Virus record (IMG/VR): IMGVR_UViG_3300033183_000442
Location: 1 to 58,856 of that record
Direction: 5' to 3' (one strand)
Length of the DNA stretch: 58,856 nucleotides
Source: a virus
Lineage: Duplodnaviria > Caudoviricetes
Shown: positions 498 through 57,972 of the stretch, piece after piece
Numbering within the stretch: position 1 is the stretch's first letter
Layout: every line of letters begins with the position of its first letter
Position numbers and translations under genes: made by a program
Notes under the pieces: generated by a model
Database searches by the model: none
What the model was told of the DNA's origin: nothing
Seen by the model: the letters and a program-made list of their open reading frames with translations, nothing else

Positions 498-1829
498 ATG
501 CCCAAGACCAGAAAAGTCGGTAAATACTTAGAGCTGAAGGGTAACACCTGGATGGTGTTCATGGATGTACCAAAAGACTTGCGTAAGCATTTCGGTAAGG
601 CTCGTCTGAAAAAATCACTGGGAACCTCTGATGCTGGTTTGGCCGAGCAGTGGAAGCATCAGTACATTGCTGATTGGAAGATGCAAATTGCCATCGCCAG
701 AAATGATCCGGATATGGAGATAGGTGAGGTTTCAGATGCGATCAATGCAATGAATAAGTTCTTGGATCAAATGAATCTCAGCCCACAAATGCGACATCTT
801 ATGGCTGCAAAGTATTTTAACCCTGACATTCCAAACTTGAGCGAAGAACAGCAAAGTAAGCGCACCCGAGCGTTTGGCGGGGTTACGTCAACCTTAACTA
901 ATACAGCCGACTACATCGATGAGTTCTTTGATTATGCGAAATACGCACCTGAAGTGCACATTGAAGGTAAGCGTTATATGACGGACGTTTTTGTCAAAAA
1001 GTTCCCAGTGTTTGAGACCATATCCACTGAGCAGTTGGTTACTTATTGTGATGCTAAATTACGGGGTACAGACGGCAGGCAATCTTGGTCTCGGGTTACC
1101 CTGCGCAAAAACCTAAACTTCGCAAAAAAGTATTGGGAATATTGCGCCCAAAGGTACACTAGTGCACCAAACTTAATCGACTATGAGCGGATACTGCCGC
1201 AAGAGATCAGAACTAAAGCCACCCGTAAAAACAGTGATGAGGCGAATAAAGCCTATTCAGTTGATGAGGTGTATCTGTTGCTTGATGCGGCGGTAAAGAA
1301 AGCCGAAGAAACCAACAGGCATGGTGACCATAACCTTGTCGATCTAATTCGATTGGGCATGTACACAGGGTGCCGTATTGAAGAGCTGTGCCAGATGAAA
1401 CTCACAGATGTAACGGCTGACAGTTTTATCATCAGGGATTCAAAAACTGAAAGCGGTCAGCGACTGGTGCCGATGCATAAAGAGGTTTCACAGGTCGTAG
1501 AGCGGCTCAAGCAGTCTAGTACTGATGGTTTCCTGCTGTCAGGTGAATCCACTGCTAATGCCACTGGTAAGCGCAGTAAGGGCCTCAGCCAGCGGTTCTC
1601 AAGGCATAAGCAGGAATTGGGGTTTGGGAATAAGGTCTACACATTTCACAGCTTCCGTTCGACTTTGGCCAAGAGGTTTGAAAGTGCAGGGGTAGAGGAA
1701 ATTAGAGCTGCCCGTATCATCGGACACAAGGTCAAATCGATGACCTATGGAATTTATTCCCGAGGAACGGATTGGGATGTTTTGTTCAATACGATGAACG
1801 AAAAAATCAGTTTCCCTAGGTCGGCTTAA
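498..1829 (+). CDS. int: tyrosine integrase (att-adjacent)
   Basis: TGCRIEE, KT, HSFR, IIGH and Y catalytic motifs; lies next to the att site. Confidence 0.95.
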   Translation: MPKTRKVGKYLELKGNTWMVFMDVPKDLRKHFGKARLKKSLGTSDAGLAEQWKHQYIADWKMQIAIARNDPDMEIGEVSDAINAMNKFLDQMNLSPQMRHLMAAKYFNPDIPNLSEEQQSKRTRAFGGVTSTLTNTADYIDEFFDYAKYAPEVHIEGKRYMTDVFVKKFPVFETISTEQLVTYCDAKLRGTDGRQSWSRVTLRKNLNFAKKYWEYCAQRYTSAPNLIDYERILPQEIRTKATRKNSDEANKAYSVDEVYLLLDAAVKKAEETNRHGDHNLVDLIRLGMYTGCRIEELCQMKLTDVTADSFIIRDSKTESGQRLVPMHKEVSQVVERLKQSSTDGFLLSGESTANATGKRSKGLSQRFSRHKQELGFGNKVYTFHSFRSTLAKRFESAGVEEIRAARIIGHKVKSMTYGIYSRGTDWDVLFNTMNEKISFPRSA

Positions 1830-5490: not shown

Positions 5491-6347
5491 TATTCGTCCT
5501 CAACGAACCAATAATGCGGCGGATCTTTAGCCTCTGATTTTGGATGGGCTTTGAAGGTGGCGCTGGGCCAACATTCACCGAGGTACGGACAAAATTCGCA
5601 GGTTTTGCATAGGCGCTGTAGGCCAGTGCTTTTGCCCCGCCATTTGTCATCGATGGGTTCAAAGCTGCGCTTGAACGTAGCCTTCGACAGGATCGCTGAC
5701 ACAGTGTTTTCGATGTTCTGCATGACCAATGACATTTCGTCATCGCCACCCTCAAACTCGACTACTTTGATGCGACCTGTGCTTTTACAAACTACAATCC
5801 AACCGCCGGGTTCTTTACCCTTAGCTTTGGAATACCCAACGAGTTGCCCGATATAGCCAAAATCATCACTTTCCCTTAGCCCCTCATAACCCTTCGACCA
5901 CTTGTGATTGAAGGCCCATGGGGAACAGGATTTGATGTCGTACACCTTGCCATCAAGTTCGATGTCATCGGTGCCGTTGATGATCGCATCAACAATCTTC
6001 AGCGATACCTTGTCGTTGCCCCCAGTGATATTTGCACCAGAGATTTTCAACAAAAGTATGGCGATGATTTCAACGATGTCGCCCATCATCATTTGTGTAA
6101 TGAAATTGTACGGCTTACGGGCCGCTTTCGCACCTGCCGCCTGCATCTGTAGCTGACAAAGGGGTTTGCCGACACTACTCATGCGCAAGACATCACTTGT
6201 CTCAGGCGGTGGTGAAAGTTGTTTGCGAAGCACCTCTTTCAGTGCTTCGCCAGCTTCTTCTAACCACTCATCCATGATGGTCAGATCGTCAAATTCCCTA
6301 TTGGACAGACGATCTGCCGCCAAATGAAGATTGGTTTCCAAAATCAT
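5490..6347 (-). CDS. Cas4-like PD-(D/E)xK exonuclease
   Basis: G..D...YDIKS, QL.GY, C-terminal CxxCxFCxxxxxC. Confidence 0.8.
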   Translation of the reverse strand: MILETNLHLAADRLSNREFDDLTIMDEWLEEAGEALKEVLRKQLSPPPETSDVLRMSSVGKPLCQLQMQAAGAKAARKPYNFITQMMMGDIVEIIAILLLKISGANITGGNDKVSLKIVDAIINGTDDIELDGKVYDIKSCSPWAFNHKWSKGYEGLRESDDFGYIGQLVGYSKAKGKEPGGWIVVCKSTGRIKVVEFEGGDDEMSLVMQNIENTVSAILSKATFKRSFEPIDDKWRGKSTGLQRLCKTCEFCPYLGECWPSATFKAHPKSEAKDPPHYWFVEDE

Positions 6348-7186
6348 GCTGCGTCTTCGACTCCGTCCTCAAGGTCGTCATCAAGACTGCTTTGGATTGC
6401 ATCCAACGCCTGACGGTCAAGGGATTGACCAGCAACCGCAGCGTCATACGCTTTTTTGATGCGGTTGTTTTCCGACTTGATTGAATCCGCAATCATTTGG
6501 ATTGTTTCGACCACTTTGTCGTCTAGACCAAGGGGTGTCTTCAAATCCGGAGCGAAGTGGAAAGTAAACCAAGTCACCGAGCCGTTCTTGTGGCGTTTTG
6601 ATGTAAGTTCGCATTGATAATCCCATAGGTTGCGGTTGGCGGGAACAACTTTGATAAATTCATCCTCGAAGGGGCTGAAATTTGTTCCTTTGAGCATCAA
6701 GATCACTGGTTCATTGTCCCAAGTGACTTTTTCGCCTGTAGCCGTTTTTGCCTCACCTGAGACCAAGCCCCGAACCTGTCGGAAACATGTAATACTTGCG
6801 TATTTTTCCTTCTGTTCCTGTGCCATTTCTCGCAACTGTGATGAGATTGGTTTGCCACAACGCAATGTACCATTCATATCGATTGGTTCTTCTGCAAAGC
6901 TGGCAATGATCTTTGATTTATTGCCAAGTTTTTTCAGAACGTTGTCCCAATCAAGGTACTGGAAGTGATGTGACAGCGGGCGGAACGTAGCTGTTTCCGC
7001 ATATGCCGCAACTTCTGCACCCTTAATGGTAAATGAGCCTCGGGGAAGCGGGTTCCCTTCGTCATCATCAACCTGCGAGTTGATTACAAGTTGCGGAAGG
7101 CGGGTAGCATTTGAACCGGACGAGTTCGCTACTTTTGCGCCCATTTGTGCAGCCAATGCTGCGATGTCCTGGGGTGTATTTGACAT
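6344..7186 (-). CDS. putative single-stranded DNA-binding protein
   Basis: position downstream of polA; acidic C-terminal tail (DDDLEDGVEDAA). Confidence 0.6.
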   Translation of the reverse strand: MSNTPQDIAALAAQMGAKVANSSGSNATRLPQLVINSQVDDDEGNPLPRGSFTIKGAEVAAYAETATFRPLSHHFQYLDWDNVLKKLGNKSKIIASFAEEPIDMNGTLRCGKPISSQLREMAQEQKEKYASITCFRQVRGLVSGEAKTATGEKVTWDNEPVILMLKGTNFSPFEDEFIKVVPANRNLWDYQCELTSKRHKNGSVTWFTFHFAPDLKTPLGLDDKVVETIQMIADSIKSENNRIKKAYDAAVAGQSLDRQALDAIQSSLDDDLEDGVEDAA

Positions 7187-7212
7187 AGAATTTCCTTCTA
7201 GTTGTTAACAAA

Positions 7213-7238
7213 ATTGGTCTCCAAGGTTGCTGGATAAG
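7213..7238 (-). promoter_or_regulatory. predicted sRNA target in the ssb-exonuclease-nrdJ operon leader
   Basis: mRNA-sense CTTATCCAGCAACCTTGGAGACCAAT is 24/27 identical to + strand 54334-54360. Confidence 0.7.
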
Positions 7239-7293
7239 CAAAATTTTCTTGGACGTTCGTTGTACCATAATTAAATGTACAAAACAATTCCTA

Positions 7294-7326: not shown

Positions 7327-9414
7327 TTAGATCAACCAAGTTTGCCCGGTTTCTATTTCAATGGCCAAAGGCAATGGAAAATCGTAGTTCCATTTGTTTT
7401 CGGCTTCCTTCAGTACATCCGTCATCGCCCAAGTAAGTGCGTCATGTACTAGATCGATTTCATCAGGATGCGTATCCACAACAATTGAATCATGGACGGT
7501 CAGGATCAGAAGTGATGTCAGATTCAAATCCTTAAATCTGCGATATGCTCGAACACAGGCCATCTGCACCAGATCATTGCCGAACCCTTGAACAGGATAG
7601 TTCACAACTTGAGTGGCATTACTGATCCGCCCGTTGCCATAACGTTTTGCATTTGGCCAATGATATTGCCGTCCCGATGGGGTTTGAACGATCCCATTTC
7701 GTATGACACCATCCATCAGTGATTTTTGATACTTCGCCAAGCCGCTGTAGATTACAAAAAACTGTTTGAAGTAATTTTGCACATGCTCAGGTTCACCCAT
7801 ACCCATGCCGCCATATAGCGGTGCGAATGTGAATGCCTTTGCCGCCTGACGCAGGTCCTTTGTCACTGCGCTGGGGTGGATGCGATTGATGATAGAAGCG
7901 GTTTGGCTGTGAACATCCTTGCCGTTTTCAATGTCATCCTTGATCTGGTTGTCCATCGACAATGCGCCCGCAACCCTGAATTCCAGTCCACTAAAATCCG
8001 CTTCTGTGATGATCCCGCCGTTGAAACGGGAAACAACGCATTTGCGGATTGGGAAACCCCGCTTGGGTTGGTTTTGGAAGTTGGGATTGGATGATGATAA
8101 GCGACCTGTTGCAGTCACACATTGATTAAAGTTGGTGTGAAGCAGGCCAGTTGGACGGGTCCATGTCTGTATGCCTTTGACAAAACTATCGAGGTAAACC
8201 GAAACCGCATTCAGACGGCTAATCTTGGTCAAAAACTCAACGGCTAGTTCGTTGCCTTTGTCCTGAGCTTGAGCGGCCAGCAGTTTGATGGTGGTTTTAT
8301 CGCATTTGAAACCGTTGATGCTTGCGTCACCAGGACCGAAGGGTACCAGCTTCAAGCCAGCAGTGGCCTTCAACTGCTCGTAAAGAGCGCCTTTGCCTGA
8401 ACAGGTTGGGCAACGGTTTTCGTTCTTGAACGGTTCACCATTCTTTTTGAACTTCCGAATTTTGCCCCGGCCATTACAGGTGCCACAACACTTCGCCTGC
8501 GTTTTCTTCACCACCTGTGTGGTGCGTCTAACCGCATTGGCAAATTGCGTTTTGGACATCTTTGGCGGCCGCAGGGGTTTACCGTTGGGGCCAATGCCGA
8601 TGTTGAACAGTTTCTGATGTTCATGGCGATCAACGACCATGCGGGAGTAAACGACCTTGGTCATGTCTGCGCCGCTGTTGAGGTTAATGGGTGTATCACC
8701 CATGACTTGCTCAACGATTTCATTGAGGCGCTTTTCCAGCTCAACCTTCTCAGCAGCAAACTCTGCCTCAACCTCGGCCAGCGCATCCATATCAACGTTT
8801 ATTCCGTTGCGTTCCATTTCGATGAGGCACTGCATCATGTCGTTGGACAATTCCAAGATCGATGTCAGGGATGCGTTTGCTTCCATCGCAAAATCATCCA
8901 TTTGCTTGAGGTAAATTTCTCCTGCAGCCCTGACATCCGCCTCAGCGTATTCGATCACAGTATCAAGAGGCATTGCCTCAAACCCAGTGCCGGATTTGAA
9001 CAACTCATCAACCAGATCGCTCTGCTTTCGGGTTGTATCCCGGCGTTCTGCCGTAGCCTTTAGCGAAATCTCCCGCCGCTGACCTTTGGACAGAACGTAT
9101 TCTCTGATCATTGTGCAGTGGATTTCAGGGGGCAGGGTGAACCCCATCTCCTTTAGCCACATCACATCAAACTTGGCGTTGTGCGCAATCAACACATCGG
9201 CCTGTTGCAACATATGTTCTAACAGGCTTCTGCAATCGGGGTCAGGCTTTTCATTGTGGTGAAACACAAGCGAAAACACCTCATCAACGGTGTCCCAGCC
9301 CAACATACCAAAGTGGGCTGAAACGCATTTATTATCGGGATTGAACGGGCTGTTATCCGTTTTACCGTCCAATCGTTGGACAGTTGTTTCAAGATCAAGA
9401 ACCAGCCGCTTCAT
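7327..9414 (-). CDS. polA: family A DNA polymerase with 3'-5' exonuclease and DnaJ-type zinc-finger insertion
   Basis: DLET, HNAKFD, TGRLSS..PNFQN, DFSGLE.R, KAFTFAPLYG, VHDS; two CxxCxGxG motifs. Confidence 0.95.
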   Translation of the reverse strand: MKRLVLDLETTVQRLDGKTDNSPFNPDNKCVSAHFGMLGWDTVDEVFSLVFHHNEKPDPDCRSLLEHMLQQADVLIAHNAKFDVMWLKEMGFTLPPEIHCTMIREYVLSKGQRREISLKATAERRDTTRKQSDLVDELFKSGTGFEAMPLDTVIEYAEADVRAAGEIYLKQMDDFAMEANASLTSILELSNDMMQCLIEMERNGINVDMDALAEVEAEFAAEKVELEKRLNEIVEQVMGDTPINLNSGADMTKVVYSRMVVDRHEHQKLFNIGIGPNGKPLRPPKMSKTQFANAVRRTTQVVKKTQAKCCGTCNGRGKIRKFKKNGEPFKNENRCPTCSGKGALYEQLKATAGLKLVPFGPGDASINGFKCDKTTIKLLAAQAQDKGNELAVEFLTKISRLNAVSVYLDSFVKGIQTWTRPTGLLHTNFNQCVTATGRLSSSNPNFQNQPKRGFPIRKCVVSRFNGGIITEADFSGLEFRVAGALSMDNQIKDDIENGKDVHSQTASIINRIHPSAVTKDLRQAAKAFTFAPLYGGMGMGEPEHVQNYFKQFFVIYSGLAKYQKSLMDGVIRNGIVQTPSGRQYHWPNAKRYGNGRISNATQVVNYPVQGFGNDLVQMACVRAYRRFKDLNLTSLLILTVHDSIVVDTHPDEIDLVHDALTWAMTDVLKEAENKWNYDFPLPLAIEIETGQTWLI

Positions 9415-11319: not shown

Positions 11320-12105
11320 TTAGATCCGCAGTATTTGTTTCAGTTCGCTGGTTGAACACTCTTTCGGGTCCTTGCCTGTTATCCGTAAACGGATATCGCC
11401 TCGTAGTTTTTTTGTTATAGCCAATGCCTTCCTGGAGGCATCGTTGTCTAACACTATATACACCTGTTTATAACTTTGTAAATTATTTTCTAATATATTG
11501 GTTAAATTAGTTCCCAATAATGCAACACCTGTTAATCCATCAATTCTGGAAACAGAGCAGGCGCTTGCAACATCTTCCACAGCAACTGCTATATCAGTGT
11601 CACCAACGGTGATGCCTGAACTGACATCGCCATATGAAATCCACTTGGGGCCGTATCCACCTAGGGCGGGGATAACTCTACCCACAGCGCCTGAATTATC
11701 ATTGTTGTAAAACAGCACTCGTTTTTCCCGAGGCGCATAGCGGACTTTGATCAGCCCTGCTTCGACGGCCTCAAGGGAGTTGGTGCTGATGAGGTATTTG
11801 CGCACTTCTGACTGATGGTCAAAGTGTGTGGTAATTTCAGGGACTGGTAGATTACGAGCGATGCGTTTAACGCTTCGATCTTTAGCAAGCGAATTCTTGG
11901 CTGCTTCAATTGATCTGTCGCCATCGTATTTCCCTCGGACGGTGCAAGATGCCCGGAAACAATTCCATAGGATTTCACCAGTTGCAAGGCGATCCACTGT
12001 GAACTTTTTATAACCGCCGCAGAACGGGCAATTCATGGTCCTGTGTTCACCCACCTTCATGTGGAGTTGTTTAACGATGTTGAGTTGTTCTGGATATGAA
12101 AACAT
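11320..12105 (-). CDS. DNA primase (zinc-binding domain + TOPRIM)
   Basis: CPFC...CFRASC; VEDV, ALLGT, LDND, DPK. Confidence 0.85.
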   Translation of the reverse strand: MFSYPEQLNIVKQLHMKVGEHRTMNCPFCGGYKKFTVDRLATGEILWNCFRASCTVRGKYDGDRSIEAAKNSLAKDRSVKRIARNLPVPEITTHFDHQSEVRKYLISTNSLEAVEAGLIKVRYAPREKRVLFYNNDNSGAVGRVIPALGGYGPKWISYGDVSSGITVGDTDIAVAVEDVASACSVSRIDGLTGVALLGTNLTNILENNLQSYKQVYIVLDNDASRKALAITKKLRGDIRLRITGKDPKECSTSELKQILRI

Positions 12106-12634: not shown

Positions 12635-13144
12635 TTAGCGATCCCCCGTTACTGCGGGTTTCGCTTCGAAGCGTAAACCAAGTTCGCTGCGGATGACTGA
12701 CAACGGTTTCCCGCAATCCAATGCCTCTGCACCCAGACCAAGAGTGTAGCACTCATTAAACGCATCCAGGACATTTTCTGGGTCAATTCGGGCGTCCCAC
12801 ATTTGGAACTGCCCATTGTTGTATTCACACAGAAAATTGCGATCCCGTTCAAAGCTGTAAGTGTGCAGCCCTGCCAGTTGCCCTTCGATTTTGCGAAAGG
12901 CCCCCAGAAGGATGTCGGTGCTTTGAAAATGCGCCTTAAGTACTGAGTATTCTTGGTCGAAGCCAGGTATTTGAACTCTGGTTTTGTAGGGTTCAACCCA
13001 AACGTTGCCAGATTCAATGTGACTGCCGCCGATACGAAATTTACGCATTTTCGTAGCAATTTTCTCGACCTGCTCTCGTTCGCCGATAGCATTGATCATG
13101 TTCTGTACAAGCGTAAAATCAAGCATAGAAACCTCCCCGTCCAA
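12635..13144 (-). CDS. hypothetical phage protein
   Basis: ORF coupled to its neighbours; N.I.AIG.R start weakly resembles the adjacent YubB-like protein. Confidence 0.65.
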   Translation of the reverse strand: MDGEVSMLDFTLVQNMINAIGEREQVEKIATKMRKFRIGGSHIESGNVWVEPYKTRVQIPGFDQEYSVLKAHFQSTDILLGAFRKIEGQLAGLHTYSFERDRNFLCEYNNGQFQMWDARIDPENVLDAFNECYTLGLGAEALDCGKPLSVIRSELGLRFEAKPAVTGDR

Positions 13145-14069
13145 AGAAGAATGGTGATGAAACTAGGCCAGCCATCCACTTTTTACGAAGGGCCAAAGTT
13201 TCACCAACATTATCTGCCTTAGCAGCGTTTTTGACGGGGAATGCTTCAGCGTCACATGCATAATCTGCAACCGCCATCATAAAGGCGAACTTGTTGGTTC
13301 CCATTTCTGGGACCGTCACCTGAATGTACTGATCAAGAATGTCCGCAATGACTGTGTCCGTCATTTTGGTGTACATCTCCAAAGCGTTGCGACATTGCTC
13401 AAGATTTACCTTGTGATCCGCAAGTTCCTGAAGTGCCTGCACCGCTTTTGGGAATTCCATGAGCGTATAACGCAAATGCGCTTCAATCGGTTCAGGCCCG
13501 AAGTTACCGACATGACGCTGGCTCTTTGCTGCCTTATTACCAAAACTCAGGATGTTACCTGTGGTCTCGCACTCAGCACCCATAATGGTGATTACCGCAT
13601 TTTGTGCGGCGTTTTTCACCATAATTACAGGGCTGCAATGTGTTTCCCAACCATTTGCAGTTTTAAGTTTGAAACGAAAATCCTTCAGTTTCAAACGCAA
13701 CTCGTTGTAAGCGTAGCCATTCTCTACGATTTCATCGAGTGTCACATTCTGCAAAAATTTGGGCGGAAGCAATTTTTCCAGCGCATCAGTGATGATGCCA
13801 TACAGTTCGCCGTTTGGCACAGGTCTGTATTTGTCATCTACTAAGTAGATTGGATCGCCAGTTTCTGCATTGCATAGCAAATTGTTGGGTAAACCTCTGC
13901 GATCTTCGAGGAGTTCAGCGAACCCCATGTCATTGAGCGCATAAACGCCTTTGAAGGTCAGTCCATAATCTGCGATAGTTAGTGCAGGAAATTTTGCCTT
14001 CAGGTCTTTTTCCTGCGGGTTTGCAGCGACAGGCGCTGTTTGCGGATACTTGTGTGTCTGCATATTCAT
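13119..14069 (-). CDS. DUF932-like early protein
   Basis: V.DKYRPVPN.E and RH.G motifs; start set at ATG 14069 after GGAG. Confidence 0.55.
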   Translation of the reverse strand: MNMQTHKYPQTAPVAANPQEKDLKAKFPALTIADYGLTFKGVYALNDMGFAELLEDRRGLPNNLLCNAETGDPIYLVDDKYRPVPNGELYGIITDALEKLLPPKFLQNVTLDEIVENGYAYNELRLKLKDFRFKLKTANGWETHCSPVIMVKNAAQNAVITIMGAECETTGNILSFGNKAAKSQRHVGNFGPEPIEAHLRYTLMEFPKAVQALQELADHKVNLEQCRNALEMYTKMTDTVIADILDQYIQVTVPEMGTNKFAFMMAVADYACDAEAFPVKNAAKADNVGETLALRKKWMAGLVSSPFFFGRGGFYA

Positions 14070-14173
14070 TTGTAATAGTTCTCCGGTACTTGGGCTACTT
14101 TGGCCCGTTGAAGTGTGCGAGGGCACTCATTGCCCCCGCTTTTGGATTGGTTGGCGCTGGTTAGGCGCCGCAG

Positions 14174-14191
14174 TCGGTTCGCTGGATAAGA
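14174..14191 (-). promoter_or_regulatory. predicted sRNA target in the leftward early operon leader
   Basis: mRNA-sense TCTTATCCAGCGAACCGA is 18/18 identical to + strand 54333-54350. Confidence 0.75.
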
Positions 14192-14224
14192 TTGCGAAAC
14201 TTGACTGGTGCCGTTGTGGCGGAC

Positions 14225-14390
14225 TTTTGTGACAGTTCGATGACGGTTTTGTAACAGTTTTGTGAAATGTGCTGGTTCTCATAACCTAATGGTCTCAGGC
14301 CCACCAATGTTTTCAATGGTTTAGCTTTCAGTGCGCTGCCAGTGTATTCACAAAAATATTCAAATCCCTTCGTCATTTTTTGTCACTTAG
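14225..14390. other. probable relic attP of the second integrase: tRNA(CAT)-like fragment with arm-like repeats
   Basis: CTCATAACC..GGTC.CAGG-CCCACCA at 14278-14306; 11-bp-period TTTTGT(G/A)A repeats at 14225-14268; IHF-like TTTCAATGGTTTA. Confidence 0.55.
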
Positions 14391-14507: not shown

Positions 14508-15641
14508 TCAAGCGACTTGGGTCGTTTGGGTGTTTCCATGTATTTCTCCTGTGTTGTTTATACGCTTCTGTTGAGCCGCCGCAGCCATGGCGGATGTTGG
14601 CACAACGTAGGTGGACACAACCTGGCGGGATTTATGTCCAGTGACGGATCTGATCTCATCCTCGGTACAACCGCTTTCGCCTAAGACGGTTGCACCTGAA
14701 CGGCGCAGATCAGACAGTTTCAACTCTTCGGGCAATCCTGCCTTAGAGCGGATGAAGGCGGCTTTCTTGCGGTACAAGCGTTCGCTATACTGCTGTCCAG
14801 TCACTTCATATGGGGCAATGACATCGTCAAGTTGCTGGTTGGAGCGACCTGAGATCATTGTCATGCGTTGGGATAGAGCAGGGGTGGCGGGTATCTTTAC
14901 TGCCGCACCAGTTTTAGCCTGCTGAATAAAAAACGCCCCATCATTGTATGCAGACCAGCGTAAGCTGCGACAATCGATAGGGCGTTGGCATAATTCGTAT
15001 GCCATCAGTGCAATTGTGCCGATGCTTGGTATTCCACAGGCATCGGCGGTATCTATAAACGTCCGGAGATCATTAGGTGTCCAACGGACGGAGCGGGAAG
15101 GGGCTTGAGCAAGCCGAATGCCGCTGAATGGGTTTTTGATCAGCAATTCCATGTAAATTGCGCAATCCCAAACCGCAGACATGATGTTTATGGCGGTATT
15201 TGCGTAATTGATGGAATTGGTCGTTACCAACGCTGCATACAGCTTCTCGCCATATGCAACGTTGATATCGGTTGCGCTGGATAGATTGCGCATTGGTTGC
15301 AACCCATCGGGCGTCATTGTGGACACTGTATTAATAACGCTGCGATAGGTGCGACGACTGCCAGGCTTTAGCGAAGCCCAGCGGCTAGAAGCAAAGTAAG
15401 CGTCCAAGACATCTGCGTAAGAGGTAACCGCAGATTTAGCAGGGGAAGGAGAGAAACCCGTCTTTTTATACGCTTGAAATGCTTCGTCAGCCGCTTGGCA
15501 CTTCGCAAGTGCTGTAGGGAAATCAGCACACACCTCGAACGAATAGCCAAGTGCCTTCTGAAGAGATGCGCTTGGAGAAAACGCATAACGGCTGTCTCCC
15601 GATGCCGTCTGGTAAGTCTTCAGATATTTCACTTTGGCCAT
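14508..15641 (-). CDS. second tyrosine recombinase (HMO-2011-type integrase position)
   Basis: CQR, QAKTG, DLRRS, TGH, Y motifs; start at ATG 15641 after GGAGGG. Confidence 0.9.
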   Translation of the reverse strand: MAKVKYLKTYQTASGDSRYAFSPSASLQKALGYSFEVCADFPTALAKCQAADEAFQAYKKTGFSPSPAKSAVTSYADVLDAYFASSRWASLKPGSRRTYRSVINTVSTMTPDGLQPMRNLSSATDINVAYGEKLYAALVTTNSINYANTAINIMSAVWDCAIYMELLIKNPFSGIRLAQAPSRSVRWTPNDLRTFIDTADACGIPSIGTIALMAYELCQRPIDCRSLRWSAYNDGAFFIQQAKTGAAVKIPATPALSQRMTMISGRSNQQLDDVIAPYEVTGQQYSERLYRKKAAFIRSKAGLPEELKLSDLRRSGATVLGESGCTEDEIRSVTGHKSRQVVSTYVVPTSAMAAAAQQKRINNTGEIHGNTQTTQVA

Positions 15642-16016
15642 TTCGCCCTCCAGCAGTTGTTGCCCCACCATTACATCACAGTCGATCTACATCTGTCAAA
15701 ATGAAATGCAATATGAATATATTGGCAAAAAAATTCATTCATAAAACGTCAGATAGGACGACAATTTGATTACTTCAAGGTAGAATCGGAAAAAGCCCTT
15801 AAAACATGGCAAAAATTACTCGGGCGTCAAGCGTATGTATATACCTTATATATAGAGAGTGCTTAAATACAGATTGTGTTGAGGTGTAATATTAGTGCAC
15901 TTCATAGTGCATTTTATAAATTCACCAATAAATTCAAAAAGCTTGAATTTAAATTAAAAACAAAAGAATCTTTCGCTACGGCCCTTGCCTGACCAGCAAA
16001 CAAACGGGCCGCAACA

Positions 16017-16040
16017 TATCCAGCGAAAGGAGGCCCCAAT
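16017..16040 (+). promoter_or_regulatory. predicted sRNA target overlapping the RBS/start of the rightward early operon
   Basis: TATCCAGCGAA-AGGAG..CCAAT(G) versus TATCCAGCGAAccgAGGAGaCCAAT at 54336-54360. Confidence 0.7.
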
Positions 16041-30651: not shown

Positions 30652-31428
30652 ATGGCAAAATATAAACGAGCAGAAGAGTTAGACGACGATCTATCTTACA
30701 GCCAAGAAGTGGCGAAACAGCAGGAACCCGCAGAGCCTGAAGTAGAAAATGCGGAAGAGGCATCCTTCAAAAAGCGATATGGTGACCTACGCCGACATTC
30801 GCAAAACTTGATGTCACAAAAAGACAAAGAGATTGAGCAACTGAAGCAACAGCTTGATAGCGCAGCTAAAGGGCAAATACGTTTCCCAAAGACTGATGAA
30901 GAAATCGAGCAGTGGAGCGCAAAGTATCCGGACGTTGCCAAAATCGTTGATACAATCGCCCGCAAACGAGCCAATGAGGCACTGGAGGAGGGGGAAAGGC
31001 GTCTAGGTCACCTCAAGGACCTAGAAACTAAACTCTCTCGCAAAGAAGCTGAACAGCAGCTCTACAAACTTCACCCTGACTTTGGTGAGATTAGGCAAGA
31101 CCCTACGTTCCATGAATGGGTGCAGATGCAGCCTGCATATATCCAGGACGCACTATATAAAAATAACACAGACGCTCATGCAGCCTCTCGGGCTTTGGAC
31201 CTTTATAAAGCTGATACGGGACGTCGAAAAACAACCAATAAAAAGTCAGCGGCAACTGCTGTAGGGCGCACATCTAGTTCAACTCCTGGCGTTGAAGGCA
31301 AAGCAAAGTTTAGCGAAAGCCAAGTCGCAAAAATGAGTGACCGAGATTACGAGAAAAACGAAGAAGCAATAATGGAGGCTATGCGCTCAGGCGCATTTGT
31401 CTATGACCTCTCTGGGGCGGCCCGATAA
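30652..31428 (+). CDS. capsid scaffolding protein
   Basis: FKKRYGDLRRH; coiled coil; precedes the capsid gene. Confidence 0.75.
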   Translation: MAKYKRAEELDDDLSYSQEVAKQQEPAEPEVENAEEASFKKRYGDLRRHSQNLMSQKDKEIEQLKQQLDSAAKGQIRFPKTDEEIEQWSAKYPDVAKIVDTIARKRANEALEEGERRLGHLKDLETKLSRKEAEQQLYKLHPDFGEIRQDPTFHEWVQMQPAYIQDALYKNNTDAHAASRALDLYKADTGRRKTTNKKSAATAVGRTSSSTPGVEGKAKFSESQVAKMSDRDYEKNEEAIMEAMRSGAFVYDLSGAAR

Positions 31429-31484
31429 AAAATGCCCCGCACAAGGCGGGGCCAGTCCAACAGGGAGTGTGGCCGAAGCCACCG
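31427..31484 (-). ncRNA. candidate short sRNA
   Basis: 5' hairpin, unpaired CUCCCUGUUGG, GCCCCGC terminator + U-tract; TTGCCT at 31511-31516. Confidence 0.55.
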
Positions 31485-53700: not shown

Positions 53701-54301
53701 GAAAGGCGCTACAGTGGAGTCTTTGGCAGGGATTAACCGTCTAACCAACGAGAGAGCATCAGGCATTCTGTCAGCTACCGCTCAAGCCTTTCCTGATGAT
53801 CCATTTATGGAAGAAACATTAAGGCAGGCGCTGGGTGGTTTGAGCGATATGAGCATTGCAAGCCGCATGAAGATATCTAAGGCCGGATCTGATACGGCAG
53901 CGAACCTTGGGATCAGAGACAGCGTTTCTACGGGTATTCTGTTTGCCTTTGGATACATGAACCCGACTGCAGCAGCCGCTAGACGACTTACTGCCGCCCA
54001 AATCGAAGCAATGGAGAAGCTTGGTAAGGAACGGCAGAAGGAAATCATTACGACTGCACTGGCGGCACCAGAGGAGCTTGCTCAATTGGCGAAAGGAATT
54101 GCGGATAAGCTTGATGAAAAGACGCTGATGACATTGAAGCGAGAATTCCTGCAAGCAGCAGAGCGGACCCTTCGCTATGAGGCTAGGGTGAACCCGAAGC
54201 CAGAGGAAGACGTTGATCAGCAGACACAGAGCATGCTGGGGAATGTAGTGAATACCCTTGGACGAGGTGTAGACAACGTAGTAGATTTCTTTAGGCAATA
54301 A
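50711..54301 (+). CDS. large internal virion (ejection) protein
   Basis: 1196-aa helical ORF ending the structural operon. Confidence 0.7.
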   Translation: MAEELSEVEKFAQRINEQYGSNIIDLNIETNVNENVEALPGGNIGIDVTDEIKASQQADQTRDYEYFYGEGPERPGLTTYMGAAIGAADNFITGNDTPNQAQQDVAAFDQKRAEYEQEARATYDALEEYDLPELKMLGGRIVVPPGLTDNEVMADGKVKVNRRMYTDENGDLQTAFILVPPPDSSAFERMIDQATRNILQETLGLVEREQDGSLDVNILEESDFAASVPDYEQDGAEGVFTTILTYGLPSAKATKVGSGIGRTLGIGKKSKTLLSASGGAIGASLIEGVLSTEGDQGMVFTPDLLRSTFPNKSEESLNDLAIVLDGLVLNGVVDSLLGFGGLVMGKIGDKTKGARGLVDPTFVRNEAERAAVLGIFRQIDPDLADVDNRTLAEGLRNLSEVLDANSEVLVQIGQSSAKVPVDTVNAIRNGAEQYVINTYQNMRRDIPDFDAFVEQKTNDMVQRTISLARANEGAEVLRQSQSDMLSSVGKVIDQEVARVNPDAASLSDAADSLVTQRQQQIDAAQQTQDVQEATAQGFRAQAGRAVSDDPFIQQMLSDTDAFKFFDETNYINSIKGLVSDEYLEAYTAAYKRVGEAYDRIPNAPIDVNAFKNQLFDVFNTIGSTSQVTDQSRFVMGELEKAIGSKVKPQGDNLLLADPRGELAGELTPQQFIDAVGDDLGFADLYQLKKQLGSTIDGMDRSPVRQKLIELRDHITSTAVDDNGNPVGQMAYVIANGGEAGELAQAADALFIQTQNKFAQGVGVKQLSDLAVEPAYKGANTPAPDGGRTRGMVAMDSQSVGQVVPQIMADRTGAEFDQLAFALSDSLRRDEVAKPLLDLYEAQAIDRLSKALANNDQQTIDLIDKSFDSFISELRRLESPLVSQLEDTKRRVSSVQNELGSRALAADEFAKEAAMRKAAAEQNIVAKLIDSQGRAKSSPAITLRNLISGDNAGNNVKYLVEQISTLPQSEREASMAALQGTLLMLVRDAAYTATPADVKGATVESLAGINRLTNERASGILSATAQAFPDDPFMEETLRQALGGLSDMSIASRMKISKAGSDTAANLGIRDSVSTGILFAFGYMNPTAAAARRLTAAQIEAMEKLGKERQKEIITTALAAPEELAQLAKGIADKLDEKTLMTLKREFLQAAERTLRYEARVNPKPEEDVDQQTQSMLGNVVNTLGRGVDNVVDFFRQ

Positions 54302-54376
54302 AAAACCTCTGTAGTAGTCGCTACAGAGGTTCTCTTATCCAGCGAACCGAGGAGACCAATCCCCGGAACTCGATTA
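54299..54376 (-). ncRNA. candidate trans-acting antisense (immunity) RNA
   Basis: 5' hairpin CCGGGGA/UCCUCGG, unpaired seed UUCGCUGGAUAAG, 11-bp terminator stem + U6; TTGAAG -35 at 54403-54408; complementary to at least four phage leaders. Confidence 0.72.
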
Positions 54377-54484
54377 AATTATTACGTTAATTTACCTGGT
54401 AACTTCAATAAAAATGCTAGCAAAATGACTTTCATATGCAAATAAGTCACATAATATTGTGCACTTATTTATGTAAATAAAGTG

Positions 54485-54500
54485 TTAACATATTGTTAAC
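54485..54500 (+). promoter_or_regulatory. CtrA-box-like site
   Basis: TTAA-CATATTG-TTAAC. Confidence 0.5.
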
Positions 54501-54524
54501 ATTAACAAATAAATAAGCATAAAA

Positions 54525-54606
54525 TATTTTACTTATTTTAACATTATTTACCTTTATTTACCCTTGTATGGTCTCATATGGCCTTATGTGACCTCAAATG
54601 ACGCTA
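54525..54606 (+). repeat. degenerate ~10-bp-period repeat array
   Basis: TATTT(T)AC-like units, then TATGGTCTCA/TATGGCCTTA/TGTGACCTCA/AATGACGCTA. Confidence 0.55.
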
Positions 54607-54641
54607 AAAATTATTAAAAAACACTGTTAACCAGTGAAATA

Positions 54642-54715
54642 CACCATATAGTGAGTTTTAACACTAAAATAATCAATATGTAGTGGTAGGTATTAGCTTT
54701 GATCGCAATATATTG
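54642..54715. promoter_or_regulatory. three NrdR-box-like sites 32 bp apart
   Basis: CACCATATAG (54642), CAATATGTAG (54674), CAATATATTG (54706). Confidence 0.6.
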
Positions 54716-54856
54716 ACTATTTTATCAAAAAAAAGTCATTGACGCTCACCGTATACATACGTCAACCTTGTTGCAGTCCCGCATCCAGCGATTCGTACTA
54801 CGAAGAACAGCGGGGCTATAGCCGCCAAGTTGTGCCGATGACCAACACTGAGATGC

Positions 54857-55165
54857 TTGGCTAAATGTAACAGGGTTTCAGAATTAACACAGTTTACGGA
54901 ATACGAACTGAGGCCCCCCATAAAGGTAGTCGACTTTATGTCTAAGTATACCTCACTCGAAGCCTTGGCTGAGAGCAGTTCATTGGTTGAACAATCATAT
55001 GCCTGCGATCTCTTGGCTTCAGCACTAAAGGAAGCGGCTGAACTGGGCCGCTTTTGCATCATATATTTTCTCAGTCAGGATGAATATCAGATTGTGGATC
55101 TGACGGGCAAGATTGCCTATGAGTACGATCCGGCAACCGATATCTTGGTCTATCCGCCCCACTAG
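54857..55165 (+). CDS. hypothetical protein (start possibly ATG 54938)
   Basis: ORF with AAGGT before MSKY. Confidence 0.55.
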   Translation: MAKCNRVSELTQFTEYELRPPIKVVDFMSKYTSLEALAESSSLVEQSYACDLLASALKEAAELGRFCIIYFLSQDEYQIVDLTGKIAYEYDPATDILVYPPH

Positions 55166-55383
55166 GGGTTCTGATGAAAATTTTTTTTTGCACAAAGTTG
55201 GCCGGGTCCGAATCGATTCGGCCAATTTTTTTTGTCTTGGCGATGTCTCAGTTGTGGACAACTTTAGGAAGGAAAACATTAGTTCCCCTAATTGAGCAAA
55301 TACCCACTATATGTGGCATTTTTCACAATAAAACATGCTAAATATGCACAAAAAATAAATTCCACCTGCATATCAATAGTTTA

Positions 55384-55398
55384 GAACAAAACAAGAAC
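55384..55398. promoter_or_regulatory. alphaproteobacterial LexA (SOS) box
   Basis: GAAC-AAAACAA-GAAC fits GAAC-N7-GAAC. Confidence 0.65.
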
Positions 55399-55573
55399 TT
55401 TCGCCGGAATACCTCGACTATTCAAAAGGATGGTCAACCGCAAATTCTCCGCAAAATGCAAATATAGCGGTTTGCGATAGGGAATCAGTCTGATAGATTA
55501 TTGGCATCAAGGTTCACCGCCGAGCCGAGGGGCTAAAACCTATGATCTGGGACAAGGTCATTATCAAGGCGGA

Positions 55574-55594
55574 TATTCAGCGAACCGAGTGAGA
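55574..55594 (+). promoter_or_regulatory. predicted sRNA target/decoy site
   Basis: TATTCAGCGAACCGAG is 15/16 identical to 54336-54351; the difference gives a G-U pair. Confidence 0.7.
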
Positions 55595-55608
55595 AACCGA
55601 AGGGCAGG

Positions 55609-55851
55609 TTGAGACTAGACCCCTCAACCACCTTCCCCAAAACGGAGACCAGGATACCGTTGAAAGACAATGTGCTGCAATTTTCATTTCGAGGAAATGA
55701 AGACTTCGCCGATTTCGCAGACAAAGTGAATGAGGCGTTAGAGAAAAGCGATGATGGTCCAATGAAAGTGGTGTGCTTTGAAAGCGATCACTTCAATGAA
55801 TACCACATCATTTACCAGACTAGGGAAGTGGTTCAGTGCCGTAAGGCATAG
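55609..55851 (+). CDS. small hypothetical protein next to att (start uncertain)
   Basis: 80-aa ORF followed by a terminator. Confidence 0.5.
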   Translation: MRLDPSTTFPKTETRIPLKDNVLQFSFRGNEDFADFADKVNEALEKSDDGPMKVVCFESDHFNEYHIIYQTREVVQCRKA

Positions 55852-55881
55852 CCTCAAACACCCAAGTCAGGAACAATACCG

Positions 55882-55912
55882 AAAACGGCTGCTATTTTAG
55901 TGGCCGTTTTTG
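55882..55912 (+). terminator. bidirectional intrinsic terminator
   Basis: AAAACGGCTGCTA/TAGTGGCCGTTTTT. Confidence 0.7.
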
Positions 55913-55922
55913 CTTTTATTTA

Positions 55923-55958
55923 GGGTGGTATATTGGGGTGGTAAAAGGGGTGGTAAAG
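55923..55958 (+). repeat. integrase arm-type sites, 3 copies at 12-bp period
   Basis: GGGTGGTA / GGGGTGGTAAAA / GGGGTGGTAAAG. Confidence 0.8.
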
Positions 55959-56004
55959 CCTAAGTGGCTGACCTCTAAAGTAATGATATATATAGAGAAA
56001 AATT

Positions 56005-56023
56005 TTTGGAGCGGGCGATGAGA
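56005..56023. repeat. att core, right copy
   Basis: identical to 356-374; overlaps the tRNA-Gly 3' end. Confidence 0.95.
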
Positions 56024-56081
56024 TTCGAACTCACGACATTTACCTTGGCAAGGTAACGCTCTACCCCTGAGCTACGCCCGC
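56007..56081 (-). tRNA. tRNA-Gly(GCC)
   Basis: cloverleaf GCGGGCG...TTGCCAA...TTCGAAT...CGCCCGCTCCA. Confidence 0.97.
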
Positions 56082-57643: not shown

Positions 57644-57972
57644 TTTTTGTTCCTTTCTTGCTATGAGAATTAGATAGCATTGTTATCGCTAACTTACCTC
57701 ATCCAAGTTGGAATTGCAGCAATGCAGAAAATGCATAGCGCGGAGGGCATCATCACATTGTTTCGCCATAAGTAGTCAATAAATTTACAGGTCTGTAACC
57801 ACTGGTTGTCAAATTGATAAAATCGTGTACAATTGTATACACGTTGAGCAATGTCCCCCATGACATTACGCCTCAACATGTTTCTCCCCATTGGACTGGC
57901 CCCACATTTTGTGGGGCATTCTTTGTGATACCCAGATCGCGTATCACAATACTCGGATTTATGAGAAGTAAG

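Follow-up and report, generated by a model that had tools for sequence, protein, structure and literature searches.

To our knowledge, the antisense regulators described in phages are mostly encoded in cis or lie inside an operon. The immunity factor of phage P4, CI, is an RNA that pairs with repeated complementary sequences of the early transcript; it is processed from this transcript and terminates the same transcript prematurely. The c4 RNA is excised from the leader of the operon under its control, has neither a promoter nor a terminator of its own and acts on one transcript, ant. The sar RNA is a cis-antisense RNA, encoded opposite its single target. The bacterial trans-encoded small RNAs (sRNAs) and the type I antitoxin RNAs IstR-1 and OhsC have their own promoter, an open seed and an intrinsic terminator, and pair imperfectly with ribosome-binding sites. 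The subject of this paper is a putative sRNA gene on the minus strand of the virus record IMGVR_UViG_3300033183_000442, which is a complete virus record of 58,856 bp and is called the window below. This free-standing gene probably makes a trans-acting antisense RNA that would pair with the early-gene leaders of its own phage.

The phage RNAs to which it can be compared are summarized in PMC12197685. In that account c4 is a structured RNA that pairs around the ribosome-binding region, and a difference in the pairing sequence between P1 and P7 underlies their heteroimmunity; sar of P22, about 69 nt long, pairs with the ant mRNA, blocks the initiation of translation and is needed for the proper establishment of lysogeny; and STnc6030 of the Salmonella prophage BTP1 is antisense to the tailspike mRNA and causes a sequence-specific superinfection exclusion, with escape mutants in the pairing region (PMC12197685).

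The candidate in the window would resemble the P1 and P7 c4 RNAs in blocking initiation by pairing, the mode of action proposed here, and in the joint change of RNA and target between heterotypic phages (the window and G003, a phage of the same sample; the relatives L159, L160 and L162). Unlike c4, it has a promoter-like site and a terminator of its own and matches several operons. It is 38-47 kb away from three of its putative target sites (B, C and D; Table 1), and 0.4-1.3 kb from two others (F and E) that belong to the same lysogeny module. The Rfam model c4-2 reaches 15.1 bits in the window against a gathering score of 41 (E = 6.7), that is, there is no match to it in sequence or structure. 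The complementary sites in early leaders are shared with P4 CI, whereas the separate gene, the multiple targets and the frequent coverage of start codons are not. Unlike P22 sar, the RNA is trans-encoded and has multiple imperfect targets; unlike STnc6030, which it would resemble if it excludes related phages sequence-specifically from a prophage, it is trans-encoded and aimed at the leaders and initiation regions of early genes. With the bacterial trans-encoded sRNAs it has in common the 5' structure, the open seed, the terminator with U-tail and perhaps a promoter of its own, and it differs from them in being encoded by a phage with the phage's own early genes as targets. Judged by the lack of a model match, the promoter-like site and terminator of its own, its position in trans and the several operons targeted, the RNA is not a member of the c4, sar, STnc6030 or P4 CI families.

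The candidate RNA gene and its conservation

The first-pass annotation of the window had placed a minus-strand promoter with a palindrome in its spacer, a 5' hairpin, an unpaired seed and an 11-bp terminator with U6 at 54299-54408. A putative promoter, the palindrome (TTACC-T-GGTAA, 54402-54392), the hairpin and the terminator are all present there (Table 1), and the RNA proper would extend from about 54372 to 54300, a length of some 70-80 nt. The seed, UUCGCUGGAUAAG, is mostly single-stranded as claimed, but in the minimum-energy fold it is partly engaged in two weak 3-bp helices, so that it can be called unpaired only approximately. The fold energy is -37.6 kcal/mol (z = -7.0, with none of 200 shuffles as good), and the terminator contributes most of it. 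The sRNA gene is convergent with the late operon, the plus-strand end of which is probably provided by the same terminator.

Table 1. Position, strand and main attributes of the features of the window (lettered sites are the putative targets of the sRNA)
Feature	Position	Strand	Attributes
Small RNA gene, -10 box to terminator tail	54297..54385	-	predicted from fold energy and a covariance-model match of 67.0 bits, which is partly circular, as the window sequence belonged to the seed alignment
Putative sigma-70-type promoter	54380..54408	-	-35 TTGAAG 54408-54403, 17-nt spacer, -10 GTAATA 54385-54380
5' hairpin	54347..54366	-	7-bp stem CCGGGGA/UCCUCGG with one G-U pair, loop UUGGUC
Seed	54334..54346	-	13 nt, mostly single-stranded, from sequence and fold
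Intrinsic terminator	54300..54331	-	11-bp stem, 6-nt loop, U6
Site B	14174..14191	-	18/18 complement of seed and start of hairpin 3' arm
Site B, second block	14144..14151	-	ACCAATCC, complementary to hairpin loop
Site C	7213..7238	-	24/27 complement of seed, 3' arm and loop
Site D	16015..16040	+	11-nt exact seed complement (16017-16027), into Shine-Dalgarno AGGAGG, then CCAATG
Site E	55572..55589	+	15/16 over 55574-55589; leader of gene E; conserved in G001
Weak site F	54780..54792	+	9-nt core ATCCAGCGA at 54783-54791; structured leader of gene F
Gene F	54938..55165	+	75 aa; divergent from sRNA; plus-strand terminator 55194-55229 after gene
Gene E	55609..55851	+	63-80 aa; adjoins attachment site; plus-strand terminator 55880-55912 after gene
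Leftward operon	15671 to 1816	-	second integrase, primase, helicase, DNA polymerase, Cas4-like exonuclease, B12-type ribonucleotide reductase
Rightward operon	15985 to 54301	+	DUF7227 gene first, weak small-terminase match, 1196-aa gene last

Relatives were found with the C-terminal 299 amino acids (aa) of the last late gene, and the sequence after its stop codon was read. The same architecture is present directly 3' of this tail-fibre-like gene at all 10 viral loci and at 16 of the 18 further loci listed; one of the two exceptions is cut by the contig end, and the other, the most distant of the set (28% identity), does not have it. It is also present in the four cultured members of the clade, CRP-3, CRP-212, CRP-235 and CRP-738, in the records of which the intergenic space at this junction is unannotated throughout. 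These give 22 distinct loci, and the terminator U-tract stands on the sRNA strand in all of them. A promoter of the form TTGnnn, 16-18 nt and a TAnnnT-like hexamer, ending 36-46 nt before the terminator, is found at 15 of the 22 loci; eleven of these have TTGACC, several in the form TTGACC-17-TATAAT and some with TATAAC. The sRNA gene of the CRP-type phages comes directly after the terminator of the converging replication operon, and the hairpin of that terminator contains the -35 box of the sRNA. The RNA of the relatives is comprised of a 5-7-bp hairpin, a variable stretch of 12-20 nt and the terminator. The hairpin loop UUGGUC is kept in 19 of the 23 distinct rows. The related contig G001 has a 44-nt core identical to that of the window beside a tail-fibre gene that is 79.6% identical, and its terminator stem carries a compensatory change.

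Applied to a plain MAFFT alignment, RNAalifold recovered only part of the terminator, with the stems out of register. A covariance model was instead built from the 22 loci and then used to realign the same loci. After this realignment 89.1% of 303 cells pair, compared to 69.8% in shuffles; 11 of the 14 pairs have changes on both sides, and the covariation score is 0.542 compared to 0.231 (neither value was reached in 500 shuffles). When the partners were slid, pairing was at most 57.8%. In the 5' hairpin (helix 1), which has 19 distinct stem sequences and is visible in the raw sequences, 87.4% of 119 cells pair, and in the terminator (helix 2) 90.2% of 184. Both helices therefore covary in the 22 relatives, which is the outcome of a covariation search in related phages that the first-pass annotation had proposed. 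The cells with G-U outnumber those with A-C by 41 to 11, and the bias exists in both helices; 89.1% of the cells pair on the sRNA strand and 79.2% on the other. The excess of G-U over A-C means that the helices pair better on the minus strand. Together with the promoter, this bias settles the strand as minus, an assignment that is well supported as far as sequence can support it. Synteny, promoter, helix covariation and strand bias agree with one another, and they uphold the minus-strand sRNA gene predicted at the outset.

With the covariance model, none of five other phages (HMO-2011, HTVC033P, CRP-1, CRP-345 and CRP-207) gave a match at E <= 0.01, the best score being 21.4 bits; either the family does not extend beyond the CRP-3/CRP-235 clade, or its other members have diverged past the reach of the model. 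Except for the tRNA, no Rfam family reaches its gathering score in the window, and the best permissive match is Yfr10 with 27.2 bits against a cut-off of 43. A blastn search with 53900-55950 found no match in the cultured phages, and bacterial genome contigs scanned with the tail-fibre alignment yielded no prophage. An exact 14-nt scan of viral contigs was discarded, as its more than 116 matches were due to chance; an 18-nt scan gave one useful contig.

Two arrangements seen in relatives are recorded here for themselves. The contig G004 carries two tandem sRNA genes (L176 8556-8645 and 9085-9173). The second has a different loop and forms 19 bp, including G-U pairs, with the start region of the intervening 58-aa open reading frame (ORF; L176 8644-8820, minus strand), the C-terminus of which is faintly similar to the gene F product (BLASTP E = 0.026, a weak value). 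In the CRP-212 record an annotated coding sequence, gp18 (L142, 13585-13833), overlaps the terminator hairpin that holds the -35 box of the sRNA.

Complementary leaders and RNA-target specificity

The complement of the seed recurs in the leaders of several operons, and most of the copies listed in the first-pass annotation were borne out: 14174-14191 (18/18), 7213-7238 (24/27 columns in our alignment), 16017-16040 (an exact stretch of 11 nt, then AGGAGG and CCAATG, at the start of the rightward operon), 55574-55589 (15/16) and the weak copy at 54783-54791 (9-nt core). A second weak copy, at 11340-11353, has to be given up, since it has 3 mismatches, falls inside the ORF of the primase and does not rise above the background. 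Site B is located in the intercistronic leader between the ORF 14161-14376 and the 335-aa gene 13119-14126. Its second block, ACCAATCC, is 14-21 nt 5' of the ATG at 14130 and 18-25 nt 5' of the GTG at 14126, the start of the 335-aa ORF. The 280-aa gene 6344-7186, which comes after the DNA polymerase gene, has site C in its leader, and the match of this site to the sRNA extends through GGAGACCAAT. Site D covers the start of the gene that opens the rightward operon, the DUF7227 gene. All five sites of the window are in the mRNA sense of the downstream gene, and so are all four of G003.

These matches exceed expectation. The 9-mer ATCCAGCGA occurs 4 times where 0.54 are expected, and the 13-mer seed, with up to 3 mismatches, 27 times where 14.6 are expected; neither count was reached in 100 shuffles. 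When the duplexes of the sRNA with the whole window were scanned (11,760 windows, mean -22.1 and standard deviation 4.7 kcal/mol), the three strongest were at sites C (7187-7246, -44.5 kcal/mol), E (55571-55630, -44.2 kcal/mol) and B (14137-14196, -43.9 kcal/mol). Only these three stand out from the background by duplex energy; site D is supported mainly by covariation with G003. The pairing engages the hairpin loop and the 3' arm besides the seed.

The pairing differs from phage to phage. Ungapped complementarity was scored in a matrix of 9 sRNAs and 8 genomes, and the cognate genome was the best one for 8 of the 9 sRNAs; the exception is a 44%-complete contig, which is probably without its early region. 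In the shuffle null the top score was reached 0-4 times in 200 for six sRNAs, including once in 200 for that of the window. The longest exact match of the window sRNA is 18 nt in its own genome and at most 11 in six non-cognate genomes. The corresponding values are 19 and at most 13 for G003, and 15 and at most 12 for CRP-235 and CRP-738.

Of all the evidence on targets, the comparison with G003, a contig of the same sample, weighs most. The last late genes of G003 and the window are 92% identical as far as a point 48 nt short of the stop codon. Beyond this break the terminator and the seed of G003 are different ones, and its hairpin has a compensated stem but the same loop. The targets differ accordingly in sequence: the leader of the counterpart of the site B gene has a 19-nt exact match to the G003 sRNA, the counterpart of site C has a two-block match of the G003 type, and the counterpart of site D, GTATCTAGC, has a 9-nt match to its own sRNA. 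The early integrase of G003 also matches the G003 sRNA, across both the Shine-Dalgarno sequence and the ATG. The two phages lose their homology precisely at site D (16017) and at 54253, 48 nt before the last late stop codon. The sRNA and the early control region thus appear to have been exchanged as units.

A smaller change of the same type is seen in L159, L160 and L162, where one seed base differs from the window and the F-like site follows it, with extra C>T and A>G differences that keep G-U pairs. Such C>T differences had been claimed for the copies in the window, where they hold at one position only, in site E; the F-like site of these three relatives adds further ones. The seed motif of the window is absent from CRP-235 and CRP-3. 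This absence was considered as a sign against conservation and dropped when these phages were found to have seeds of their own. Of the 8 top-two matches in the cultured phages, 6 coincide with the annotated start codon of an early gene, and the other 2 are in internal Shine-Dalgarno-ATG contexts. In each of these phages 3-5 early genes share an initiation cassette of about 28 nt that ends in GACCAA(A)TG and is complementary to the sRNA from seed to loop. The motif GACCAA(A)TG is not enriched genome-wide (in CRP-235, for example, it occurs 3 times with 2.0 expected), and only its placement at early-gene starts is distinctive. The sRNA has its best sites in CRP-235 and CRP-738 at internal ATGs (of gp61 and gp64), and the annotated starts of these two genes may be too far upstream. 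The complement in mRNA sense that the first-pass annotation had seen in the leaders of several operons is therefore present and covaries with the RNA between phages.

On another reading the element is nothing but a bidirectional terminator of the late operon, and the matches arose by chance or were left over from recombination between modules, at their boundaries. In favour of it, the hairpin comes immediately after the stop codon of the 1196-aa gene and is flanked by a run of A and a run of T, and the homology breaks with G003 coincide with site D and the 3' end of the tail-fibre gene. Chance, however, does not account for four occurrences of ATCCAGCGA where 0.54 are expected, for an exact inverted match of 18 nt or for the cognate specificity of 8 of 9 sRNAs. 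The 5' hairpin, which belongs to no terminator, covaries, and repeats left at boundaries should be common to the phages, whereas here they differ and change together. This explanation is extremely improbable.

Proposed mechanism, possible role and competing explanations

In the proposed mechanism the sRNA would be transcribed from its own minus-strand promoter and end at the intrinsic terminator. Its loop would contact the GACCAA near a start codon, and the pairing would spread via the 3' arm and the seed over the Shine-Dalgarno region. Where both the Shine-Dalgarno sequence and the start codon are covered, the entry of the ribosome and hence translation would be blocked. As targets it would have the leaders that precede four genes (13119-14126, 6344-7186, F and E) and, in the rightward operon, the ribosome-binding site of the first gene. 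At sites B and C cleavage, polarity or the loss of a standby site would replace occlusion. The sequences themselves show how the gene is built and that it is conserved, that both helices covary and on which strand they pair better, and that the complementarity to leaders follows the cognate genome; from this we infer transcription, repression as the outcome of pairing and the biological role alike. On the same basis there is good computational support for an antisense RNA that acts in trans on early genes.

Several observations weigh against this assignment. The promoter of the window is weak, its -10 box, of the GTATAA type, being without the final T, and a scan of the window for consensus promoters and terminators marked neither the promoter nor the terminator of the sRNA. 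Of the 24 sequencing runs listed, four were compared with the window, among them the only RNA run, a seawater metatranscriptome in the form of assembled contigs; no contig of it lies over the sRNA locus, which is a neutral result. The pairing of 89.1% was obtained with a covariance-model alignment, which leans toward its own structure, and almost all matches of the model are its own training sequences. The duplex at site D (-37.7 kcal/mol) is 9th among the 11,760 and is not distinguishable from the background by energy, and site F is weaker than site D and outside the top 20. Sites B and C are 14-60 nt upstream of the start codons and leave the Shine-Dalgarno sequence uncovered, so that simple ribosome occlusion does not explain them. 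The shuffle null has its weak spots in CRP-738, where the top score was reached in 29 of 200 shuffles, and in CRP-235 and CRP-212 (4 of 200 each). For 4 of 8 sRNAs (CRP-3, CRP-212 and the two of G004, G004a and G004b) the longest exact match in the cognate genome is no better than in non-cognate ones. Finally, the copies would be expected to change together also if all of them were sites for one sequence-specific protein.

The last point leads to an alternative in which no antisense RNA exists. The repeat would be a sense-strand DNA or mRNA element bound by a protein (a translational repressor, a nut-like antiterminator or an operator), 54334-54360 would be one more copy of it, and an altered specificity of the protein would account for the joint change of the copies. 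All copies, including that at 54334, do have the orientation of the genes beside them, and the missing transcript of the sRNA is also in agreement with it. However, no plus-strand gene follows the copy at 54334 within 500 nt, and this is the only copy to have a hairpin partner arm as well as a minus-strand terminator U-tract and promoter, all kept in 22 relatives. The stem G-U pairs would be A-C mismatches on the plus strand (41 against 11 cells). The length and register of the matches vary, from 18-19 contiguous nt to two blocks, unlike those of a fixed protein site. The lambda nut site has a boxB-like hairpin beside a conserved box; at copies B, C, D and E no partner arm such as a nut-like boxB requires is seen, copy B having an unrelated 5-bp GC hairpin. 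We regard a protein-bound sense element as very unlikely.

For the antisense RNA, the preferred role is that of an immunity factor: made by the prophage, it would silence the early genes and give a sequence-specific superinfection immunity. This is put forward as a tentative proposal, with a little less than even confidence, and it does not exclude an additional function as a timer of lytic growth. The promoter needs no obvious phage factor. Two findings speak against the immunity role: the sRNA gene is found in every member of the clade, with or without an extra lysogeny module, and the promoter looks constitutive, which implies that the RNA is also made in lytic growth. By its distribution the sRNA is a core feature of the CRP-3/CRP-235 clade and not special to the lysogeny module of the prophage, and for this reason a role in the lytic programme deserves equal consideration.

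Shutting off the translation of early genes after infection is a known strategy, carried out in T4 by the RegA protein. The same antisense RNA might serve this purpose only, as a temporal regulator of the lytic cycle without any part in lysogeny or immunity. The presence of the gene throughout the clade, with or without the inserted module, agrees with such a timer, and so do the position of the CRP-type sRNA just after the terminator of the replication operon, the hairpin of which holds the -35 box, and the targets in the cultured phages, which are 3-5 early genes of the operon in the structural direction. A promoter that looks constitutive, however, would be active in the prophage too. Seeds and targets have diversified among phages of the same host (CRP-3, CRP-212 and CRP-235 on FZCC0040) and of the same sample (the window and G003), which is expected of immunity specificity, whereas a timer would not require it. 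The sRNA of the temperate subclade is back to back with gene F, the leader of which matches the seed, a layout resembling a switch. A role in lytic timing alone is a serious possibility that we are inclined to doubt.

The immunity role can be extended to the whole group. The sRNA would then be the primary immunity repressor of a clade of temperate podoviruses abundant in the sea, the HMO-2011-type CRP-3/CRP-235 clade, lysogeny would be maintained with no repressor protein, and the combinations of seed and target would define heteroimmunity groups. We regard this wider claim as rather unlikely, though conceivable. The absence of a recognizable CI or Cro gene, stated in the first-pass annotation, is in line with a role in lysogeny or immunity: a Pfam scan (E <= 0.01) of 122 ORFs of at least 40 aa in the early, replication and lysogeny regions, with 25.3-50.7 kb outside the scan, matched no helix-turn-helix or repressor family. 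In the published descriptions consulted, CRP-3 integrates into a tRNA gene (PMC6918029), and the account of the group in PMC9038755 reports no lysogeny gene beyond the integrase.

Prophage setting and meaning for the HMO-2011-type phages

The HMO-2011-type phages rank with the most abundant viruses of the sea, and some of them have an integrase. The comparison of DNA polymerases assigns the phage of the window to this type; its closest cultured relatives are the Roseobacter phages CRP-235 (63% identity), CRP-3, CRP-212 and CRP-738. The ends of the prophage are a 19-bp direct repeat, 357-375 and 56004-56022, the right copy of which is the 3' end of a tRNA-Gly gene (minus strand, 56007-56081). 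In G001 the prophage ends are joined, which is the free-phage arrangement. The prophage has two tyrosine integrases, 498-1829 (+) and 14508-15671 (-). The terminase and the portal protein are presumably encoded in the rightward operon, as ORF size and the CRP annotations suggest. In the cultured relatives the replication and structural operons converge directly. The window has about 3 kb inserted at the same junction, in the circular form 54400-56022 plus 357-1829, a segment with the attachment site, the first integrase and the small genes F and E.

Gene F is divergent from the sRNA gene. Its product is hydrophilic and acidic, has no Pfam match and no atlas match, and has 5 relatives among 5.8 billion proteins. 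A structure model (pLDDT 79) consists of one long helix and a small sheet and has no fold match in the PDB at E <= 0.001. The toxins of type I toxin-antitoxin systems are small hydrophobic membrane peptides. The sRNA and gene F are divergent neighbours as in such systems, but the acidic, hydrophilic protein of 75 aa is unlike a type I toxin. The only metatranscriptome contig over gene F is 230 nt long (54931-55158) with a depth of 2.4; it may stem from either strand or from DNA that was carried over. The gene E protein has no Pfam match and finds only itself among the 5.8 billion proteins.

Site F, in the leader of gene F, is kept in G001 amid sequence that is otherwise unalignable, and its outer stem is compensated. 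Just 5' of the site there is an inverted repeat, TTGACG-15 nt-CGTCAA (54739-54765), which is also kept in G001, with a different spacer, and may be an operator or a part of the gene F promoter. At its position L159, L160 and L162 have TTGACC followed by a -10-like box. The segment between the sRNA promoter and gene F, 54410-54735, is very AT-rich and unalignable in G001, and one of three DNA runs (X3) has a contig in which 527 different letters replace it. The segment resembles a hypervariable regulatory region.

Other features of the prophage were noted in passing. Direct repeats of the type GGTGGTAAAAGG flank the attachment site (423-463 and 55908-55960) and may be arm-type binding sites of the integrase. 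In agreement with earlier reports on HMO-2011-type phages, a DnaJ-type CXXCXGXG insertion (Pfam PF00684, E = 5.6e-5) is present in the DNA polymerase (7327-9414). An inverted repeat of 41 nt, 83% complementary, connects 31427-31467, a hairpin after a capsid-region gene, with 57884-57924, a hairpin in the host flank near a tRNA-Tyr gene.

Among the papers listed by a literature search, none dealt with a regulatory RNA in HMO-2011-type phages. The words sRNA, antisense and repressor have no occurrence in the main text of PMC9038755 or PMC6918029, which agrees with the statement of the first-pass annotation that it knew of no such description.

The unannotated intergenic space at the convergent junction of these phages would thus hold a gene. 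The proposal can be tested directly with phages and hosts in culture, for example with CRP-3, CRP-212 and CRP-235, which share one host strain. The sRNAs and their leaders would constitute a natural set of orthogonal RNA-leader pairs, and a free-standing regulator with multiple targets would be added to the antisense regulators of phages. An RNA gene that is conserved and has matches in early genes of the same phage is a concrete candidate for the switch-off of early genes in HMO-2011-type phages, and it may replace the repressor protein that has not yet been found in this group. If this is true, coexisting phages of the same host would escape mutual immunity by changing one RNA and several leaders together.

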